64,000 bases of DNA from an uncultured Acidobacteriota bacterium. Lineage in GTDB: Bacteria; Acidobacteriota; Blastocatellia; Pyrinomonadales; Pyrinomonadaceae. Position numbers and translations under genes: made by a program. Position 1 is the first letter of the stretch. Each line of letters starts with the position of its first letter. Shown here piece by piece: positions 2,427 through 47,779 of this stretch. The notes beneath the pieces were generated by a model. The model did not search any database, had not been told where the DNA came from, and saw only the letters and a program-made list of their open reading frames with translations. The stretch is taken from the NCBI GenBank assembly GCA_902826795.1, contig CADEGD010000004.1, positions 94,155 through 158,154 of the forward strand. The letters are read 5' to 3'.

Positions 2427-3632
2427 TCACCTTCGAAACCTAAAAAACTCATCCAACGAATGCTTCTTTCCTTTTAGCATTCGGGACACCATTTCCATTC
2501 CAATTACTGAGAACGTGATGCCGTTGCCGCCGAAGCCGAGGACGAAATAGGCGCTGGGGAAGTTTGGATGTTTGCCAATGTAGGGCAGACCGTCTTTTGT
2601 TTCGCCGAAGGTTCCGGCCCATGCGAAATCGGTTCGGAAGGGTGTTTCGGGGAAGAGTTTCACGATCTGCTTTTCGAGCTTCGCGGCTTTTTCCGACAGC
2701 ATGGCGTCGCGCTTTTCCGCGTCGATAAATTCTTCATCTTCACCGCCGATCAGCATTCGGCCGTCGTCCGTTGTGCGCAGATAAATGTAAGGGTCAGCGG
2801 TATTCCAGAACAGCATGTCGTCGAGTTTGGAAGGCCGATCGCGCGACACCTCGCCGACTATCGCATACGTCGAAAGCAGGTCGACAAATTTATCCTTAAC
2901 TACCTCTACACTCTCGAAACCGTTGCAATAAATGATCCGTCGGGCGTAAATCTTGTTGCCGTGTTCGGTCAACGCGGTAACGCCGGACGGTCGATGATCG
3001 ACCTCTTCGACCTCCGTTTTGTCATAGATCTTAAGGCCGCGTTTCGCGTTGTAGGCGAGCAGGTCGTGCGTAAATTGAAACGCGTCCATGCTTCCGCCCT
3101 GCTCCGACAAGATCCCGCCGTGGGCACCGCGAAGGCCGTATTCAGCTTCGATCTCGTCCGCCTCGATCCACTTGACCGGAAACCCATGTTTCTCACGCGC
3201 GGCAAACTCATGTTTTAGATCAGCGACATCTTTTTTCAGCGCGGCAAAGTAAAGCGATCTCTTTTTCTTGAACCCGCACTTCGACCTGATGCGCTTTATC
3301 AAACGGCCGAGCGTATCGATAGAATCGAAACAAGCACGATAGCTGGCCACCGCGCCTTCTTCACCGATCATCTCGATCAGTTCATATAGCGGCTTATCTA
3401 TCTCGTATTGCAGCATAGAGGTCGTCGCCGAAGAGCTCCCGTGAGCGATCTCACGACGATCGACCAACATCGTGTCAAACCCATCTTCCACACATTGATG
3501 CGCGATCAGGCTGCCCGTTATACCGCCGCCAACAATCAGCACGTCGGCACGAACATCGTCGCGCAGCGATGGATATGAATTGATCAGGCCGTTCTTTACC
3601 AGCCAGAAAGGTTCGTTCGAGCGAAGTTTCAT
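2427..3632 (-). CDS. FAD-dependent oxidoreductase (DAO family)
   Basis: 401 aa with dinucleotide-binding VLIVGGGITGS near the N-terminus and a C-terminal GFGGNG. Confidence 0.85.
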   Translation of the reverse strand: MKLRSNEPFWLVKNGLINSYPSLRDDVRADVLIVGGGITGSLIAHQCVEDGFDTMLVDRREIAHGSSSATTSMLQYEIDKPLYELIEMIGEEGAVASYRACFDSIDTLGRLIKRIRSKCGFKKKRSLYFAALKKDVADLKHEFAAREKHGFPVKWIEADEIEAEYGLRGAHGGILSEQGGSMDAFQFTHDLLAYNAKRGLKIYDKTEVEEVDHRPSGVTALTEHGNKIYARRIIYCNGFESVEVVKDKFVDLLSTYAIVGEVSRDRPSKLDDMLFWNTADPYIYLRTTDDGRMLIGGEDEEFIDAEKRDAMLSEKAAKLEKQIVKLFPETPFRTDFAWAGTFGETKDGLPYIGKHPNFPSAYFVLGFGGNGITFSVIGMEMVSRMLKGKKHSLDEFFRFRR

Positions 3633-35453: not shown

Positions 35454-36350
35454 TTAATCAGCCAGATATCCGAACTTACCTTGCTGATAATCGTCGATCG
35501 CTTGTGCGATCTCGGCGTTCGTGTTCATCAAGAACGGACCGTATTGGGCGATCGGTTCGTTGAGCGGTTCGCCGGCCATCACGAGAAAGACCGAATCTTC
35601 CTCGGCTCGCACCACGATCTCCTCGCCGTCCGTTTCGAATAGTGCGAGGTTATCGGTCGGCAATTTCTTCTCACCGTTGAGAGTCGCCGAACCTTCGATC
35701 GCGACGACGGCAACCGTGTAGTGAGATGGAAAATTCAGCTTGATCTCCGAGCCAGCCTTCGGTTTCAGGTTGAAAAGATTTACCGGAGAGAACGTCGCCG
35801 CCGGTCCATTCACACCTTCGTACTCACCAGCGATCACCTCTACATAACCGCCTTCAGGTAATTCGTATCGGCCCATCTCGCCGTTCGTTATCGCCTGATA
35901 TTTTGGCTCGGTCATCTTGTCTTTCGCCGGAAGATTCACCCAGAGCTGCACCATCTGAAATTCACCGCCTTCGCGGTTGAACTTCTCTTCGTGATACTCC
36001 TTGTGCAGTAAACCACTTCCCGCCGTCATCCACTGCACGTCGCCCTCGCCGATAACTCCACCGCCTCCGCGGCTATCGTGATGCGCGACCCTTCCGTGAT
36101 AAGCGATCGTTACCGTTTCGAACCCGCGGTGCGGATGCGGCCCAACGCCCAAAAGATTCGTGCTCGGCGGAAAGTTGTACTTCGCGTTGTAGTCGAGCAG
36201 AAAAAACGGGCTCATCCGCTCTGCATGAAGCGGCCCGTGAGGCAAAAATCCGTGAACACGAAATCCGTCTCCTACCCAATGCACCGGCGGCGGCGGCACG
36301 ATCTTCTCGATCGACCGTAAGGAATTCTCTCGCTTAGTTTCTGTCTTCAT
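35454..36350 (-). CDS. pirin family protein
   Basis: 298 aa bicupin with the HPHRGFETVT motif. Confidence 0.9.
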   Translation of the reverse strand: MKTETKRENSLRSIEKIVPPPPVHWVGDGFRVHGFLPHGPLHAERMSPFFLLDYNAKYNFPPSTNLLGVGPHPHRGFETVTIAYHGRVAHHDSRGGGGVIGEGDVQWMTAGSGLLHKEYHEEKFNREGGEFQMVQLWVNLPAKDKMTEPKYQAITNGEMGRYELPEGGYVEVIAGEYEGVNGPAATFSPVNLFNLKPKAGSEIKLNFPSHYTVAVVAIEGSATLNGEKKLPTDNLALFETDGEEIVVRAEEDSVFLVMAGEPLNEPIAQYGPFLMNTNAEIAQAIDDYQQGKFGYLAD

Positions 36351-36828: not shown

Positions 36829-37461
36829 CTAGATTTTGGAGACGGCCATCAGCCCATCTCGTACAGGCAGGAGCACATTACACACGCGAGAGTCCGCTTG
36901 CACCTTCTGATTAAACTCGTGTAGCGCTTTTGTGTTCTCGTCTTTGTCGTCGTCGAGCACGCGGCCGCTCCACAGGACGTTGTCGGCGATGATAAAGCCG
37001 CCTGGCCGCACTTTGTCGAAGACCAGATCGTAATAGTTGGAATAGTTGGGTTTATCGGCGCCGATGAATACGAGATCAAACGTTTCCGGCAATGTCGGAA
37101 TGATCTCTGTCGCGTAACCGAGATGAAACTCGATACGGTCCTTGTACTTCGTTCGCTCTACGAACGCCGTGGCGACTCTGTTTGTGTCTTCTTGTATATC
37201 CAGCGTAATTACTTTGCCGCCTTCAGCCAATCCTTCGGCAAAGCAAAGTGCGGAATATCCTAGATATGTGCCGATCTCGAGTACGACCTTTGGCCGTATC
37301 ATTTTCGAAAACATTGAGAGAATCCTGCCTTGCACAAGTCCCGATAACATCGACCTATCTTCGTAATTACTTTCGCACTCCTCACGAAGCTCTCGTAGCA
37401 CGTCGCTTTCATCAGAAGTAAATGATTCCGCGTAGTTTATGATATTTTGAGTAAATTCCAT
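36829..37461 (-). CDS. class I SAM-dependent O-methyltransferase (caffeoyl-CoA OMT-like)
   Basis: 210 aa from ATG 37461. SAM-binding VLEIGTYLGYSAL. FIGADKPNY and ADNVLW blocks. Confidence 0.85.
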   Translation of the reverse strand: MEFTQNIINYAESFTSDESDVLRELREECESNYEDRSMLSGLVQGRILSMFSKMIRPKVVLEIGTYLGYSALCFAEGLAEGGKVITLDIQEDTNRVATAFVERTKYKDRIEFHLGYATEIIPTLPETFDLVFIGADKPNYSNYYDLVFDKVRPGGFIIADNVLWSGRVLDDDKDENTKALHEFNQKVQADSRVCNVLLPVRDGLMAVSKI

Positions 37462-37503
37462 TGGATTTGTGTGTGCGAACCGGCCGCCGCTCACGCAGGC
37501 AGA

Positions 37504-38133
37504 TCAGAGGTCGACTCGAACTAGGCCGCGTTTGATCGCGGTCGTTGCGGCCGATGTTCGATCGGAAACGCCGATCTTGCCGAAAATGTTTTGATTGTGA
37601 GTTTTAACGGTATTCTCTGAGACGTCGAGAGCAAACGCGATCTCCTTGTTCGACATTCCGCCGACTATCATGCGGAGAACAGTCTCTTCGGTTTGTGTTA
37701 ATTCTTCTTTGCCGATGTTCTCGCTCAAGATCTGAGCAATGTCGGCAGGAATGTATTTCTTTCCGGTGGCAACTGTTCTTATCGCTTTAAGCAATTCATC
37801 CCGTTCTACATCCTTGCAAATGTATCCCGCCGCACCTTTCTTCAACGCCCGTGAGATCTCCGCGTCACCTGCATGTTCGGCGAGGACGATGATCTTTGCC
37901 TTCGGATCGGCTTTGAAATAGTTCTCTAGGTCGTCGATCGAACAGGAATCGGGAAATCGCAATCCGAGGATCGTTACGTCGGGGCGAAGTTCAAGAAATC
38001 GGGAGAAACCTTCGGAGGCATTGTCGGCCTCGCCGACAAGCTCGATGTCGCTCTCGCCGGCGATCACGGTTCGCACGCCAATTCGTGTGAGCGGCTGGTT
38101 TTCGATGAGCAGGACTTTGGCGAAATCGGGCAT
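37504..38133 (-). CDS. LuxR/NarL-family response regulator with degenerate receiver
   Basis: 209 aa with C-terminal LuxR HTH (LTQTEETVLRMIVGGMSNKEIAFALDVSENTVKTH). The receiver has EN in place of the DD pair and G at the phospho-Asp position (TILGLRFP). Confidence 0.85.
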   Translation of the reverse strand: MPDFAKVLLIENQPLTRIGVRTVIAGESDIELVGEADNASEGFSRFLELRPDVTILGLRFPDSCSIDDLENYFKADPKAKIIVLAEHAGDAEISRALKKGAAGYICKDVERDELLKAIRTVATGKKYIPADIAQILSENIGKEELTQTEETVLRMIVGGMSNKEIAFALDVSENTVKTHNQNIFGKIGVSDRTSAATTAIKRGLVRVDL

Positions 38134-38136
38134 CTT

Positions 38137-38499
38137 TTACCTGCGTTCCATACGCCATCGCAAAAGCCCGCCAACGAACGACAGCGGTCCAAAAAGGAAC
38201 GTGGCAGCAAGCTGGGTGTAATGATTCCCAGGCGATTTGAGCAGCGAAAATGCAGCAAATGACATGGTTATAAACAACACGGCGTAGTTGGCGGTCAGGT
38301 TACCCTTCGGCGCGATCAACTTTGCAACATAGCCACCTATGAAAGCGAAGATCGCTCCGCAAACGATGACCAGAGCGATAGTTTCCGGACCCGCGTCGGC
38401 GTGCGGGTCAATACCGCTAAAATGAAACAGTAAGATCGAGCCGATGGCAAATATAGCGTATCCCGCGATTCCGCCTAAAAAAATCCTTAAAAAAATCAT
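38137..38499 (-). CDS. small integral membrane protein
   Basis: 120 aa with four predicted hydrophobic helices. Its ATG lies 1 nt after the alaS-fragment stop. Confidence 0.6.
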   Translation of the reverse strand: MIFLRIFLGGIAGYAIFAIGSILLFHFSGIDPHADAGPETIALVIVCGAIFAFIGGYVAKLIAPKGNLTANYAVLFITMSFAAFSLLKSPGNHYTQLAATFLFGPLSFVGGLLRWRMERR

Positions 38500-38500
38500 T

Positions 38501-39325
38501 TTACTTTCCCGACAAACCCGCGGCGAACTCGACCAACGGCTTGATCAAGTCGGTTTCGTAATTCGTTTTTACGTGCTGCATTACGGCTGCCATTCTTTCC
38601 AGGCCCATGCCGGTGTCTACCGACGGAGCCGGCAGCGGCGTCAGCTTAAAGGTGCCATCGGCCTCAAGTGTACGGTTGTATTGCATGAAAACGAGGTTCC
38701 AAATCTCCATCGTGGTATCACCCGGTCCGTTCACCCAATGCGGCGAATTCTTCCCGGGATCTTCAGGGTTCTCACCCATGTAGTAATGGATCTCGGAACA
38801 CGGCCCGCAAGGTCCGGTGTCGCCCATCTGCCAGAAATTATCCTTCCGGCCAAAGCCGAGAACGCGCTCAGGATTGGCTCCGACCTTTACCCAAAGTTCC
38901 CGCGCCTCATCGTCAGGCCCGACTTCGCCGTCACCTTCGAATACCGAAAACCACAACCGCTCCGTGTCGAGCTTAAATTCGTTTACGAGCAGATCCCAGG
39001 CATACTTGATCGCGTCTTCCTTAAAGTAATCGCCGAACGAAAAATTACCTAACATTTCAAAGAACGTGTGGTGCCGAGCCGTCTTTCCTACCTCGTCGAG
39101 ATCGTTGTGCTTGCCACCCGCCCTGATGCATTTTTGCGACGTAGCCGCGCGCCTATAATCACGTTTCTCGATGCCCAAAAACACGTCTTTGAACTGGTTC
39201 ATTCCCGCGTTCGTGAATAGCAAAGTAGGGTCGTTTGCGGGCAATAGCGGCGAAGAATGAACGATCTTGTGTCCGTTACGTTCAAAATACTTTAAGAAGG
39301 TTTCCCTGATCTCGTTACCGGTCAT
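38501..39325 (-). CDS. alaS: alanine--tRNA ligase, catalytic-core-only ORF (truncated after motif 3)
   Basis: 274 aa from ATG 39325. Canonical AlaRS N-terminus: [72 protein letters not shown]. It stops about 20 aa later. Full-length AlaRS is about 870-900 aa. Confidence 0.85.
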
Positions 39326-39403
39326 AAAGTGCGATTTTATCACAGCGAGACACAAAAAAAGGACGGCCGATCACGACCGTCCTCAAAGGAGAAACACGTA
39401 AAA

Positions 39404-39967
39404 CTACTTCGATGGACGAAACTTTAGTGAAACCGAGTTGATGCAGTATCGAAGTCCCGTTGGTTCAGGGCCGTCGTCAAACACATGTCCAAGATGCCCG
39501 CCGCATCGGTTGCAGTGAACTTCGGTCCGCACATCGGACGGGATGCTTTTGTCCTCCATCTCGCCAACGTGCTTCTTATCAATCGGCTGATAAAACGAAG
39601 GCCAGCCTGTTTCCGAATCGTACTTGTGCTTTGAGCTGAATACGGCGAGCCCGCAAGCGTTGCAGTAGTAAGTACCCTCAGCCTTGTTATCAGTTAACTC
39701 TCCTGTGTAAGCCTGCTGCGTGCCTTGTTTGCGGAGAACGTAGAACTCAAGCTCGGTTAGCTCCGTTTTCCAGATCGCGTCCGTCTTATTTATTTTCGCG
39801 CCGTCCCATGTATCGATAAAACTCAAGTTCCTCTTTGCCGAAGCAGCTTTCGGCGTGGGCAAAGCGGCTACTGAGTCCGCTCTCTCCGCTAAAACCCGAC
39901 CGCTACTGCCAGCAATGATCGACAAACTAATGATCCCTAAAAGAGCTAATGCAAGGTTCAATTTCAT
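39404..39967 (-). CDS. msrB: peptide-methionine (R)-S-oxide reductase, secreted form
   Basis: 187 aa from ATG 39967, with a signal peptide. SelR motifs YYCNACG, HCNRCGGHLGHVF and RYCINS. Confidence 0.9.
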   Translation of the reverse strand: MKLNLALALLGIISLSIIAGSSGRVLAERADSVAALPTPKAASAKRNLSFIDTWDGAKINKTDAIWKTELTELEFYVLRKQGTQQAYTGELTDNKAEGTYYCNACGLAVFSSKHKYDSETGWPSFYQPIDKKHVGEMEDKSIPSDVRTEVHCNRCGGHLGHVFDDGPEPTGLRYCINSVSLKFRPSK

Positions 39968-40091
39968 GACAATCTCCGACGGCGATATGCCGCATTTATC
40001 TAAAATTATTCCAAAGAAGAAGGGCTGGCGATCGAACGGGCTTACGCCAATGCAGTTCGATCTCTCCAAGCCCTCTTTATGACCAGTTAAC

Positions 40092-40658
40092 TTAGTTGGG
40101 AAGCAGGACTGAGTCAACTACGTGAATAACGCCGTTCGACTGTTTTACGTCGGCGATCGTAACCATCGACTTGCCGCCCTTCTCATCCATCACTACTACC
40201 TTGTCGCCTTCGAGCATCGCGGTGAGCTTTCCGCCCGCTACTGTCGTGAATTCGGCCTTCCCGTTACCCTTCTTGATGGCCTTTACGATATCCTTCGCCC
40301 CGTTGTTGCCGGCTACGACGTGATACGTAAGGATCTTGGTGAGCGTTGCTTTGTTTTCCGGCTTGAGAAGCGTTTCGACCGTGCCCGCGGGCAGTTTATC
40401 GAATGCACTGTTTACCGGGGCAAATACCGTAAACGGACCCTTGCCCGAAAGCGTTTCGACCAAACCAGCGGCTTTTACGGCTGCTACCAACGTCGTATGG
40501 TCTGCCGAGTTGACGGCATTCTCGACAATGTTCTTGTTCTTATACATCGCAGCGCCGCCAACCATAGGGTTGTCACCACCGCTCATTTGAGCTGAAACCG
40601 TTGAAGAAGCGGTCGCAAGTAACGCGAACGCAAAGAAACTAAAGAGTACTTTTTTCAT
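40092..40658 (-). CDS. fasciclin (FAS1) domain protein
   Basis: 188 aa with a signal peptide. TVFAPVNSAF, LTYHVV and VIHVVDSVLLP motifs. Confidence 0.85.
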   Translation of the reverse strand: MKKVLFSFFAFALLATASSTVSAQMSGGDNPMVGGAAMYKNKNIVENAVNSADHTTLVAAVKAAGLVETLSGKGPFTVFAPVNSAFDKLPAGTVETLLKPENKATLTKILTYHVVAGNNGAKDIVKAIKKGNGKAEFTTVAGGKLTAMLEGDKVVVMDEKGGKSMVTIADVKQSNGVIHVVDSVLLPN

Positions 40659-41142: not shown

Positions 41143-42373
41143 TCACTTTTCTACCTCAAATTTGCCGTCTTTCCAAACAAGGGCGTAAAGCCGCGGACCG
41201 TACTCGCTTTCTTGCTCAGCGTTGGTTTTCTTTCCTCGAACCTCAATCGTGGTGTCATACCTGCCAGGCTCGTAGTTGTTCTCAGGGTCAAACTTCGGCA
41301 CGACCGTACCAGAAATATCTACCCATTTTCCGTCCCTCTTTTCCAGAAATCTGATCGCTTCGTCAGCCTCCTTTAGCGAAGAAACCGAGACCACATGCGT
41401 GCCGCCGTAGCGGCGGTAAAGGTTGAGTCGAATAATAGGATCGCGTCCACCATCACCAACGCTGAAGTGAGTCGGCTCATCGACGACGGCATACTCTTTC
41501 AGATATTGAGCACGATACTTAAGGCATTCGGCGTCGTCTTGGCTGCCGGGTTCACATCCTTCGAAGCGCAGATATTTTGCGGGCACGGTCATATAAGCAT
41601 CCATCAGAAGACTGCGGTTTTGATCCTGCCGATCAACGTAATTGACCGAGTTCTGCCACCGGCGTTTAACCAGCCTCTTGGTCGTCACTTTAACTTTGCT
41701 TTCGCCGGTTGAATCGACTTCTTCGGAAATGATCTTTACAGGCTTTCCGTCAACCACCTCGTATTCATCCGTGACGTGGAAACAGCATCCGCTTTTGTCA
41801 AAAACACGCAATCGCTTTGCGGCCCGATCTACCTCAAATCCGAGGTGCCTGCCCAGCTCCGTAAACGCCTCGCTGAATACGAATTTTTTTCGGCTCGCGA
41901 CGATAAATACATTCGATATGAAGGAGTGCCGTATGAGCCGTTTTGCCCGTCCGAAACGGAAACATCCTCCATACCGTCAAAATTCAAGTCGTCGATAACG
42001 ACAATTCGATACCGATCTCGTGAGGTATCCTCATGAATGTACGGACTGCCGTCGCTTGTGAGATCGAAGTATGAGTCTTCGTGCTCAATCGTCTGGTAAG
42101 GGGCCGTCTCTCCTTTCCTAAAAAATCGAACTATGCCTTGCCTGAGCATTTTGACCCATCGCACGCCGCGACAGTTATTCGAACGTCAAAATACTTCGAT
42201 GCGTCGTTAACCTCGAAAACCTCCCCGCTGGGGTTTGAAGGGGTTTCCGATGATGTATGTGAGCCACTGCTGTTCGGGGCGATCTCATTTACTGATGCTC
42301 GATCCGTCGAGCAAGAGCTCAACAATAAGATCGAGAAGGATAAAATGACGGTAAAGAATAACAAGTCTTTCAT
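41143..42373 (-). pseudogene. FG-GAP / XAC2610-like lipoprotein gene broken by two frameshifts
   Basis: Three consecutive minus-strand ORFs read as one protein. The first has lipobox LLLSSC. The second has the Ca-loop DLNFDGMED. The third has ..FVFSEAFTELGRHLGFEVDRAAKRLRVFDKSGCCFH.. Frames switch at a T7 run (41884-41890) and near 42131-42140. Confidence 0.5.
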
Positions 42374-42520: not shown

Positions 42521-43105
42521 CTAACTCTCATGCTCCATTCTCACCGAGAGTGACCTCATTCGCTGTCCGATCAACTCGTAATCGAAGCCCTGCCGGAGTA
42601 AATGATCGAAGAACTTTTTCTTATCCGCGAGTGTTTCCGGTTTACCTTTCGATCGTAACCGCTTCTCGATCGCCCGGTCGATAAGCTCGGACTCGGGTAA
42701 CTTCTCAAACGCCGATTTGATCGCAGTGTCTACATTTTCCTTGCTCAGCTTCTTTTGCGACAACGACTGCAAAAGGCGGCGCTTGCCTTGAGGTTTTTGA
42801 CGCAACTTCGAAACCGCAAGATCGGCGGCGAACTGTTGATCGTCCAGATACTTATACTCTTCCAGTTTTCCGATCACTCGATCGACGATCTCCGCGTTGG
42901 TCCAGTTCTTTTCAAGCAGCCGCTCTCGAAGTTCGCCGACCGACCGCGGCTTTGCGGCGAGCAGTTTGACGGCGCGGTTCATGGTCCGCTCGCGTGCTCT
43001 TTCGACGTCAACTATGACCCGTTCTTCTTCTGGCTTCGATACCAACCGTTTCCGCCACATTACTTTCAATTCTACATTGGTCAATGCCTGCTTCTCCCGA
43101 TTCAA
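42521..43105 (-). CDS. recX: recombination regulator RecX
   Basis: 194 aa, start uncertain (TTG 43105, or ATG 43060). RecX-like helical repeats (RSVGELRERLLEK..., LDDQQFA, FDHLLRQGFDYELI). Confidence 0.75.
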   Translation of the reverse strand: MNREKQALTNVELKVMWRKRLVSKPEEERVIVDVERARERTMNRAVKLLAAKPRSVGELRERLLEKNWTNAEIVDRVIGKLEEYKYLDDQQFAADLAVSKLRQKPQGKRRLLQSLSQKKLSKENVDTAIKSAFEKLPESELIDRAIEKRLRSKGKPETLADKKKFFDHLLRQGFDYELIGQRMRSLSVRMEHES

Positions 43106-43143: not shown

Positions 43144-44031
43144 ATGGACGGACTTTTAATCATCGATAAGCCCGCCGGCATCACTTCTCACGACGTTGTC
43201 GCTTGGGTTCGCCGCGCATTAAAGACTAAACGCGTCGGGCACACCGGAACGCTCGATCCGTTCGCAACCGGCGTGATGGTTGTGCTTGTGGGCAAGGCAA
43301 CGCGGCTGGCGCAGTTTCTGGATAAAGATGAAAAGGAGTATGAGGCCCTTTGTCAGTTCGGGTTTGAAACCGACACAGGTGACAAGTCCGGTAAGCAGAA
43401 GGCAGAAGGGGGAATGGGGAACGAAAAGATCGCCGAAACGCTTGAAAACACTGATTGGGAAGCAATACTTCAAGGGTTTCGCGGTGAGATTCAGCAAACG
43501 CCGCCGATGTATTCGGCAAAGAAGGTGGAAGGTAAGAAGCTCTACGAGCTCGCGCGTCAAGGAATCGAAATCGAGAGGAAAGTCGTAACCATAAACGTTC
43601 GAGAGCTGGAGATCATTGCGTCCGGATGTGTACCCACGTCTAATCGCCGAATTAGAGTTGTGTGTTCGGCGGGTACATACATTCGCACGCTTGCCGAGGA
43701 CATCGGCCGCGAGATCGGTGTTGGCGCCCATCTTACCGAACTTCGACGCATTCGATCGGGTCGTTTTGGTATCGACGAAGCTGTCAGCTTAGACGCAATT
43801 ACCGATAACGACCTGAGGCCGATGGAGCTAGCCGTAGATCACTTGCCGCATTTCGTCCTTCGCGAAGATCGTGTGGCGAAGACGCTTAACGGAATGTCTA
43901 CGCGAGACCTATCGGGAGCTTTCACCGACGGCCAGCAGATCAGAATGAATTCGCCGGACGGTGACCTGATCGCGATCGGCGTTTTTGACGACACCGAGAA
44001 AGTGGTGCAGCCAAAAGTTGTTTTGGGCTAG
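43144..44031 (+). CDS. truB: tRNA pseudouridine(55) synthase
   Basis: 295 aa. GLLIIDKPAGITSHDVV, catalytic GHTGTLDPFATG, and YSAKKVEGKKLYELAR. Confidence 0.95.
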   Translation: MDGLLIIDKPAGITSHDVVAWVRRALKTKRVGHTGTLDPFATGVMVVLVGKATRLAQFLDKDEKEYEALCQFGFETDTGDKSGKQKAEGGMGNEKIAETLENTDWEAILQGFRGEIQQTPPMYSAKKVEGKKLYELARQGIEIERKVVTINVRELEIIASGCVPTSNRRIRVVCSAGTYIRTLAEDIGREIGVGAHLTELRRIRSGRFGIDEAVSLDAITDNDLRPMELAVDHLPHFVLREDRVAKTLNGMSTRDLSGAFTDGQQIRMNSPDGDLIAIGVFDDTEKVVQPKVVLG

Positions 44032-46243: not shown

Positions 46244-47779
46244 TCAATTTCTCCGCTTGGGAGATAACTCATAAAACCAGAAGTCGTTGTTCGGCTGGTC
46301 GATCTTTAGTTCATCGGTCTTGCCGTTCTTGTCGATCGTGAAGGTCACGAAGCCTCGCGGAAAGTTATATGACACGGACGGACGCCATTTGATCACCCAC
46401 GTATCGTAGTGCCAGTGTTCGAGATCGGCTACGAAATTCGGCGATGGCAGGAAGCGCATAACAAGTTTCCCGTTCTCTTCCGAGACGCTGATATCGCCGT
46501 ACATCTTATCGGCGTAAGTTCCGGCGTACGACGAGATTGTGAGCGTCGGTTTCGCGTTTGCGATCCGTGTCGCATCGATCTTCTTGATCTCTTCTTCGGC
46601 GGTCGCCTTACTTCGCTTGATATTCTCGGCGGCCTCCGCGTTCCAGTCACGTTTAGGAGCATTCACGAGTACGTCACGGATCTTGTTCATCATCACGACA
46701 AAGGCCGGGGATTCGCTGTTAGTGAGCACAACAAAGCCTGCGTTCTCTTCCGGGATCAACACCGTGTAAGACAGCATTCCGTCGAGCCCGCCGCTATGGT
46801 TGACGATCTTGTGACCTTGGTAATCGTAAACGAACCAGCCCATTGCTACGCCCGAAAAGTGACGCGTCGGGCTGGCTTTCCAGCCTGGCTCCGAGATCTG
46901 TTGAGACAGATATGGCTGATGCATCTGCCATGCCTGCGCCTCGCTGAATATCTGCTTGCCCTCGAATTTACCCCTTCCGAGCTGAGTTCTCACCCATCTG
47001 GACAAGTCCGCAACCGACGAATTCAACGCCGCTGCCGAATCCGCTCCGTCGACGTTACCTTTCGGCAAAACACGAAGTTTGCCGCCGGATTCATTGTGAG
47101 GAAATGCTGCATTGGTCGATACGTCCTTGACGCTGCAAGTCGTCCGTCCCATTCCAAGCGGATCGAGGATCCGCTGCTTTACGAACGAGCACCATGACTG
47201 ACCCGAAACCTTCTCGATCACGCGTCCGGCGGCGACAAACATCAGATTCTGGTAGCCGTATCGCGTTCGAAAGCTCGACACCGGTTTGAGGAATTTAACC
47301 CGGTCAAGCATTTCGTTCGCCGAATAGGTCGTTTCGTACCAAAGAAGATCGCCGCTGAAAGTATCGAGCCCAACGCGATGCGTCACGAGGTCACGAATCG
47401 TGAGTTCGCTGGTAACCCATAGGTCGTACATCTGAAACGCCGGAAGATATTTTGACACCTTGTCGTCCCACGCGATCTTTTTTTCATCGACGAGGATCGC
47501 AAGTGAGGCTGTCGTGAACGCTTTCGTGTTCGACGCGATCGCGAAAACGGTGTTCTCATCTACTGGCAAGGTCTTGCCCAGCTCTCGCGTTCCGTAGCCC
47601 TTCGCAAACACGACCTTGTCGTCTTTCACAACCGCGATCGCCATTCCCGGCCCGCCGTGTGTCGCGAGTACCGCCTTCGCGTATTCATCGATCTCCGCAA
47701 TCTTTGCGTCGATAGTTTGAGCAGTTGCAGAAACTGCCAGAGCAAGAATAAGCCCGACAAGGTATAAATTCCTTTTCAT
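46244..47779 (-). CDS. beta-lactamase-fold serine hydrolase (class C/PBP4*-like) with C-terminal beta domain
   Basis: 511 aa from ATG 47779. Signal peptide and S-x-x-K motif (SNTK). Starts 2 nt after the upstream stop. Confidence 0.85.
   Translation of the reverse strand: MKRNLYLVGLILALAVSATAQTIDAKIAEIDEYAKAVLATHGGPGMAIAVVKDDKVVFAKGYGTRELGKTLPVDENTVFAIASNTKAFTTASLAILVDEKKIAWDDKVSKYLPAFQMYDLWVTSELTIRDLVTHRVGLDTFSGDLLWYETTYSANEMLDRVKFLKPVSSFRTRYGYQNLMFVAAGRVIEKVSGQSWCSFVKQRILDPLGMGRTTCSVKDVSTNAAFPHNESGGKLRVLPKGNVDGADSAAALNSSVADLSRWVRTQLGRGKFEGKQIFSEAQAWQMHQPYLSQQISEPGWKASPTRHFSGVAMGWFVYDYQGHKIVNHSGGLDGMLSYTVLIPEENAGFVVLTNSESPAFVVMMNKIRDVLVNAPKRDWNAEAAENIKRSKATAEEEIKKIDATRIANAKPTLTISSYAGTYADKMYGDISVSEENGKLVMRFLPSPNFVADLEHWHYDTWVIKWRPSVSYNFPRGFVTFTIDKNGKTDELKIDQPNNDFWFYELSPKRRN

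Follow-up and report, generated by a model that had tools for sequence, protein, structure and literature searches.

The alaS locus in the window

The window, as we call the whole 64-kb stretch of DNA analysed here, carries on its minus strand (38501..39325) an open reading frame whose 274-residue product is the class II catalytic core of alanyl-tRNA synthetase (AlaRS), with motifs 1-3 and the alanine and ATP site. This assignment comes from Pfam, from alignment with the E. coli enzyme and from conservation within the family; we refer to the gene and its product as the N-piece. Its start is the ATG used by the homologues (MTGNEIR...), the TTG at 39355 given by the ORF finder having been rejected for want of conservation. 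The Pfam profile PF01411 (tRNA-synt_2c) matches with E=2.6e-113, over profile positions 1-259 of 552 only. The protein is 60% identical to E. coli AlaRS over residues 7-272 of the latter, and residues 5-271 of the solved E. coli fragment (PDB 3HXU) align with it. In the alignment, the equivalents of R69, K73/K74, W170, D235 and G237 (E. coli numbering) are all kept. The numbering of the E. coli sequence used for comparison agrees with that of N303 and D400 in PMC11392972. The polypeptide is devoid of the tRNA-recognition domain (Asn303/Asp400), the editing domain (HxxxH, CxxxH) and C-Ala, and scores 366 bits against TIGR00344, below the equivalog cut-off of 457 bits. The reading frame is free of internal lesions and closes with a TAA at 38501-38503. 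Thus, the preliminary description of this DNA, which had recognised an AlaRS N-terminus with motifs 1-3, free of lesions and ending at residue 274, is borne out by Pfam and by the alignment.

E. coli AlaRS and the C-terminal part of the enzyme from Pyrinomonadaceae (the C-piece, see below), used as tblastn queries, revealed no further AlaRS part in the 64-kb window. The weak matches of E. coli AlaRS at 3174-3578 and 46979-47234 fall in genes for a DAO oxidoreductase and a member of the beta-lactamase family. A reading of the gene as part of a split intein was rejected as well: the N-piece ends 1-10 residues past the last AlaRS core helix, the C-piece opens with AlaRS sequence and Pfam detects no other domain.

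One nucleotide past the stop of the N-piece lies the ATG of a predicted membrane protein of 120 residues (38137..38499, minus strand) that matches no family. This ORF is lineage-specific, being missing at the same position in all five related loci examined (5/5); in a metagenome run (X1, see below), a second contig with an N-piece passes from 38526 straight to 37953, leaving the membrane ORF out. Three nucleotides after it comes a LuxR/NarL-type response regulator with a degenerate receiver (37504..38133, minus strand), which follows the N-piece at every window-type locus seen (all six genomes). In the receiver, EN replaces the acidic DD pair and a Gly the phospho-acceptor Asp (..TILGLRFP..), and the regulator is probably phosphorylation-independent. 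A class I SAM-dependent O-methyltransferase (OMT; PF01596; 36829..37494, minus strand) begins 9-42 nt further on and is syntenic with the N-piece and the response regulator, and a pirin gene (35454..36350, minus strand) is the last of the conserved downstream block.

On the upstream side, msrB (SelR domain) and a fasciclin-domain gene, both assigned by Pfam and synteny (39404..40658, minus strand), lie between the N-piece and recX (42521-43105, minus strand). truB (43144-44031, plus strand) diverges from recX, and these two genes serve as markers of the ancestral alaS locus. Three successive ORFs without family matches occupy 41143-42373 (minus strand), between the fasciclin gene and recX; this stretch is missing from two related loci (L003 and L004). 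The small membrane ORF 1 nt past the stop, the degenerate response regulator and the O-methyltransferase after it, and recX 3.2 kb upstream on the same strand are all as initially described.

A terminator-like hairpin of 11 pairs (7 of them G-C) followed by a T run stands between msrB and the N-piece (39359..39384, minus strand); although it is a consensus match only, a new transcription unit plausibly begins after it. In the interval 39326-39358 (minus strand), a -10-like GATAAAAT is present 8 nt upstream of the N-piece ATG and no Shine-Dalgarno sequence is visible, and the N-piece transcript may be leaderless or carry a very short leader. The N-piece had been proposed to head an operon. The upstream hairpin and the tight downstream spacing make this plausible, the transcription unit itself being something that we infer. 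None of the RNA-seq runs searched for the N-piece gene holds it.

Conservation of the N-piece and of its surroundings

The gene order truB|recX-fasciclin-(msrB)-N-piece-response regulator-OMT-pirin is found in six genomes: that of the window, L003 (GCA_016711345.1), L004 (GCA_019639115.1), L091 (the closed chromosome CP070897.1), L092 and L093. A fasciclin gene occupies the position between recX and the N-piece in all related window-type loci whose upstream flank was read, and msrB is found there in L003, L004, L094 and L107, not in L091 and L092. Since fasciclin and msrB are shared with other members of the clade, they are old. Read as a recent event, the insertion of lower-GC genes between recX and alaS that had been suggested earlier is thus right only in part: it retains some force for the 41.1-42.4 kb stretch and the 120-residue membrane ORF, the only lineage-specific parts here. 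In at least 12 related genomes (L007-L019, L096-L098), an unsplit alaS gene of 900-940 codons is found directly downstream of truB|recX. Judged by gene order, the N-piece sits at the ancestral alaS locus, as had been surmised.

One of the six genomes deserves a comment. L091 (6.99 Mb), which is labelled Leptolyngbya sp. 7M, carries the Pyrinomonadaceae-type truB/recX/fasciclin/N-piece/response regulator/OMT synteny, and its proteins are 55-85% identical to those of the window; the cyanobacterial organism label is probably wrong.

An error of assembly or binning, by which the 5' end of alaS would have been joined to unrelated DNA, was among the explanations first offered. Logan contigs from four wastewater metagenome runs cover 37400-39500 with 0 differences, no indels and no joints. 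These runs (X1-X4) are four samples of one study, one of which may be the source sample of the window, while the other three are not. In addition, two wastewater runs have Logan contigs, assembled independently, that carry the exact window protein together with the same downstream genes. Since the stop and the downstream genes are spanned without differences in four runs, the junction is not a misassembly. The same gene order in five other assemblies, one of them a closed chromosome, speaks against an artefact too, and the idea can be dismissed with near certainty.

The absence of the C-terminal 600 residues from this locus would also be compatible with a recent truncation, the N-piece then being a decaying alaS remnant, a pseudogene in the making after a rearrangement. 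Several features of the family argue otherwise. A length-restricted search retrieved more than 120 protein clusters of 272-284 residues, 82-92% identical to the window protein, originating from Pyrinomonadaceae, Blastocatellia and 'Chloracidobacterium sp.' MAGs. The N-pieces are conserved up to ..VEF(T/A)AxL, after which a variable tail of 1-10 residues leads to the stop, as is expected of a true C-terminus. Among the six genomes compared, dN is 0.08-0.15 and dS is saturated, with omega (dN/dS) of 0.03-0.07. In trees of the N-domain, the N-pieces form a single clade whose stem is not lengthened (FastTree support 96, IQ-TREE SH-aLRT 91). The N-piece gene is intact, strongly conserved, under strong purifying selection and monophyletic; neither relaxed selection, nor lesions, nor the patchy, length-variable occurrence of a pseudogene was found. 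A length-conserved family of a single origin, with low omega and without lesions, is not the product of a recent truncation, and this reading, which had also been put forward at the outset, is rejected as most improbable.

An apparent exception among database proteins has a trivial origin. P0121, the nearest relative whose sequence seemed to run beyond residue 274, comes from an unsplit alaS on a long-read contig (L006, ENA contig_73840). Frameshift errors break many genes on this contig, alaS included, and its gene calls mimic truncated AlaRS proteins in the protein databases.

The missing part of AlaRS as a separate gene

A search seeded with the C-terminal part of a related unsplit alaS (that of L006) recovered many proteins of 610-690 residues, encoded on long contigs and beginning with MSxY(E/D)xLxExxxFAC-RVIADH. 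Unlinked C-piece genes of this kind, encoding 632-644 residues, are present in L033 (JADJWM01, 'Chloracidobacterium sp.'), L039 (DAOLDE01, Pyrinomonadaceae), L089 and L090, that is in two species-representative genomes and two further assemblies. Their locus has a conserved order (beta-lactamase-like gene, small membrane protein, C-piece, Ser/Thr kinase), and no catalytic domain is encoded upstream of the C-piece in any of these four.

The C-piece covers PF01411 positions 265-551 plus the tRNA_SAD and DHHA1 domains, and the N-piece covers positions 1-259. Aligned at the junction, the two abut: the last N-piece position matches E. coli residue 273, and the head of the C-piece, MSSYEE..QFAC-RVIADH, takes over at the next. 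At the level of the family, that is with the two pieces taken from separate related genomes, they are complementary, without loss or duplication. The equivalents of N303 and D400, which read the G3:U70 pair, and of the editing residues H564, H568, C666 and H670 are kept in the C-piece. A protein that keeps the tRNA-recognition residues in the absence of an active site needs a catalytic partner.

Evidence that both genes belong to the same organisms is indirect and of three kinds, this need of the C-piece for a catalytic partner being one of them. Another comes from phylogeny. The C-piece clade (support 100) groups with the unsplit genes of L013, L014, L015, L017 and L019 (support 100), and the N-piece clade joins the same five in the FastTree analysis (support 96). 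In the IQ-TREE N-domain tree, the N-piece clade falls in a polytomy with these five, outside the other Pyrinomonadaceae clade, the decisive node being poorly resolved. The two clades show compatible positions in the sequence trees. The third kind of evidence is co-abundance, measured at low depths (3-9x) in complex metagenomes. In X1, X2, X3 and X4, respectively, the contig bearing the N-piece has a depth of 7, 4.6, 6.4-7.8 and 3-4.6, and the contig bearing the C-piece, which is colinear with L039 and L033 and in X3 extends into the kinase gene, has a depth of 8.6, 3.8-4.3, 7.6 and 3.7-7.2. X1 contains a second pair, in which the N-piece without the membrane ORF and its presumed partner have depths of 3.3 and 3.0. 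Compatible tree positions and matched contig depths lend indirect support to both genes being present in the window genome, where presumably no full-length alaS exists beside them.

Three further searches bear on linkage. A fused N- plus C-piece query run on genome contigs returned, among the matches listed, two C-piece loci and unsplit relatives, the unsplit alaS genes of all bacteria outscoring the N-pieces. At two further complete window-type loci, on metagenome contigs among the matches listed, no C-piece was present within 10 kb of the N-piece. Pairing of N- and C-pieces through neighbouring protein accession numbers gave no match.

A probable two-gene AlaRS

Of the explanations listed in the preliminary description, a split AlaRS whose remainder is encoded elsewhere is the one best supported, by the separate C-piece genes, the exact complementarity, the trees and the matched depths. 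We consider it likely, on these comparisons of genes, that the N-piece is the catalytic subunit of a naturally split, two-gene AlaRS in a clade of Pyrinomonadaceae. Alanine activation and the transfer of alanine to the 3' end of the tRNA would be the task of the N-piece, in which the class II active site is complete. The C-piece, a protein of ~630-645 residues encoded elsewhere in the genome, would contribute the helical tRNA-recognition domain, with the Asn and Asp that read G3:U70, the editing domain and C-Ala. Joined non-covalently, N- and C-piece would together restore the enzyme in its usual form; presumably they assemble and are active. A cut at this position appears to be tolerated, to judge from genes split in place at the same position (L087, L088, L172 and L173, see below) and, by analogy, from the active alpha plus beta pair of Nanoarchaeum equitans.

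A different possibility is that the N-piece is an extra, repurposed alanine-activating paralogue, coexisting with a normal full-length alaS and acting without tRNA-recognition and editing domains. Its role might be that of a tRNA-independent enzyme forming alanyl-adenylate or transferring the acyl group, or a regulatory one exerted together with the response regulator and the methyltransferase encoded alongside. Stand-alone paralogues of aminoacyl-tRNA synthetase cores do exist (HisZ, AsnA, PoxA and YadB), and the synteny of the N-piece, the response regulator, OMT and pirin in six genomes might reflect a function connected with these neighbours. Such a paralogue would nevertheless leave the C-piece genes of the clade, which have no catalytic domain and keep the G3:U70 and editing residues, in need of a catalytic partner. 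Moreover, the N-piece sits at the ancestral alaS locus on a branch that is not accelerated, and both its 60% identity to the E. coli enzyme and its full set of active-site residues fit an unchanged job. Carrier-protein and biosynthetic genes are absent nearby. For these reasons we hold a repurposed paralogue to be unlikely and favour the two-gene synthetase.

Annotation pipelines call the C-piece 'alanine--tRNA ligase'; the N-piece goes, at NCBI, under 'hypothetical' or 'alanine--tRNA ligase-related protein'. Because the pipelines name the two pieces in this manner, the split is invisible in databases. Marker sets based on alaS may misjudge genomes in which the gene is split.

Genes split in place and a possible origin of the fission

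Members of the other Pyrinomonadaceae clade often have, at the recX locus, an alaS split in place, the cut falling where the window-type split does. Three such loci (L087:6560-9953, L088:6616-9896 and L173:3623-6908, all on JGI metagenome contigs, that of L087 being 2.77 Mb long) have the order N-piece (283-302 residues), 75-residue antitoxin-like gene, PemK/MazF toxin (PF02452), C-piece. The start of the antitoxin-like gene overlaps the stop of the N-piece, the C-piece begins 3-40 nt after the toxin, and both pieces are intact at all three loci. In L088, the 3' end of the toxin gene is frameshifted. A fourth locus (L172:3548-6914) has the same split point and another two-gene cargo, made of a 152-residue ORF and a 43-residue basic ORF; the former shows a weak, sub-threshold similarity to nucleotidyltransferases. 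No remnant of a toxin-antitoxin pair was detected next to the window N-piece or next to the unlinked C-pieces.

The head of the C-piece is the same in genes split in place and in unlinked ones: it is one residue longer than the ..NYEAETQEGFAM of unsplit genes, with FAC replacing FAM. This shared derived head is an argument that the split alleles have one origin in common. On the tree, the C-pieces of genes split in place are scattered among unsplit genes, and well-supported branches force at least 14 changes. The split alleles do not cluster even when the 150 junction-adjacent residues alone are used, 20 changes still being needed, as opposed to the clustering near the junction that long recombination tracts would produce. 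The scatter may reflect short-tract recombination or repeated loss.

A protein of 943 residues (P0404, on a JGI contig of 6674 nt) consists of a catalytic domain, a 40-residue insert (..MSSAAVTARLEATGRL..) and a C-piece-type head, IDEQKKFAC-RVIADH. The insert resembles an antitoxin N-terminus, and the gene looks like an alaS that was re-fused with a scar. Another sequence peculiarity concerns motif 2, where the near-universal RHHTFFEM is RHQTFFEM in 78 of the 81 unsplit P-series database proteins sampled, nearly all from the P0391 clade. RHQTFFEM is also found in L010, L012 and both sampled N-pieces of genes split in place, while most window-type N-pieces keep RHH.

A route can be imagined from these alleles. 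Fission would have occurred in place, in the linker between two domains, possibly caused by insertion of a toxin-antitoxin cassette as in the sister clade, and a later rearrangement would have separated the halves. The window would represent a derived, fixed state, with the cargo gone, the C-piece elsewhere and the response regulator, OMT and pirin genes downstream. More broadly, and as a tentative proposal to which we give rather less than even credence, the split allele would have acquired its own new stop and tail and its own new start and head (MSxYExLxExxxFAC), would often have moved among, or been lost from, Pyrinomonadaceae lineages, leaving at least one re-fusion scar (P0404), and would have become fixed, without cargo and with its halves apart, in the window clade. 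If this is true, the lineage has long depended on a heteromeric AlaRS in which one polypeptide bears the active site and another reads G3:U70. The intermediates split in place around toxin-antitoxin cargo suggest a concrete route to the fission of an essential gene.

Comparison with known systems

In T4-like phages, the essential genes nrdA and gp43 are split in place by free-standing homing endonuclease genes. The sister-clade alaS genes are similar in that the two halves flank a small selfish cassette (PemK/MazF and its antitoxin) and stay intact. They differ in that the cargo is a toxin-antitoxin or other two-gene module instead of an endonuclease, and that the host is cellular; the window itself, again in contrast to the phage genes, carries no cargo and its halves are unlinked.

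The leucyl-tRNA synthetase of Aquifex aeolicus, made of alpha and beta subunits, is a naturally heterodimeric version of a synthetase that is usually a single chain. It resembles the enzyme proposed here as a bacterial aminoacyl-tRNA synthetase split into two genes whose products reassemble, the differences being the class of the enzyme and the position of the split.

Among the synthetases, AlaRS alone has been described as retaining a prototype single-chain architecture across all of life, Nanoarchaeota excepted (PMC10036535). A full-text search of the literature yielded no bacterial example of a split AlaRS, all cases published there being from Nanoarchaeota. Shortened forms of AlaRS that begin with the same catalytic core as the N-piece include the mini-AlaRS encoded by Tupanvirus (PMC10036535) and the minimal active fragment of the E. 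coli enzyme, residues 1-441/442 (PMC11392972). These keep the whole tRNA-recognition domain and charge tRNA alone, whereas the N-piece is without that domain. With 274 residues, the latter is even shorter than the E. coli fragment 368N, which cannot alanylate tRNA (PMC11392972).

In N. equitans, AlaRS is encoded by two distant genes, NEQ547 (alpha) and NEQ211 (beta), and alpha plus beta are active (PMC11392972). The alpha subunit spans the equivalent of E. coli residues 1-368; the tRNA-recognition domain is thus itself divided by the cut, with Asn303 left on the alpha side (PMC11392972). Alpha alone charges minihelices without G3:U70 specificity (PMC11392972), and G3:U70-specific charging requires both subunits (PMC11392972; PMC10036535). 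The arrangement proposed for Pyrinomonadaceae is alike in that AlaRS is borne by two distant genes, with the catalytic part on one and the editing domain and C-Ala on the other. It differs in the position of the break, which falls at E. coli residue ~273, on a domain border and ~95 residues earlier than ~368; both G3:U70-reading residues are therefore on the C-piece. It differs also in its hosts: these are bacteria that live freely in soil and wastewater and have genomes of 3-7 Mb, as against reduced archaeal symbionts. With the active site and the G3:U70 readers on separate proteins, the coupling between acceptor-stem recognition and catalysis becomes directly testable, and so does a possible non-specific charging of minihelices by the isolated core, of the kind reported for the N. 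equitans alpha subunit. By analogy, the split AlaRS of Pyrinomonadaceae would work like that of Nanoarchaeota and would have arisen by an independent fission.
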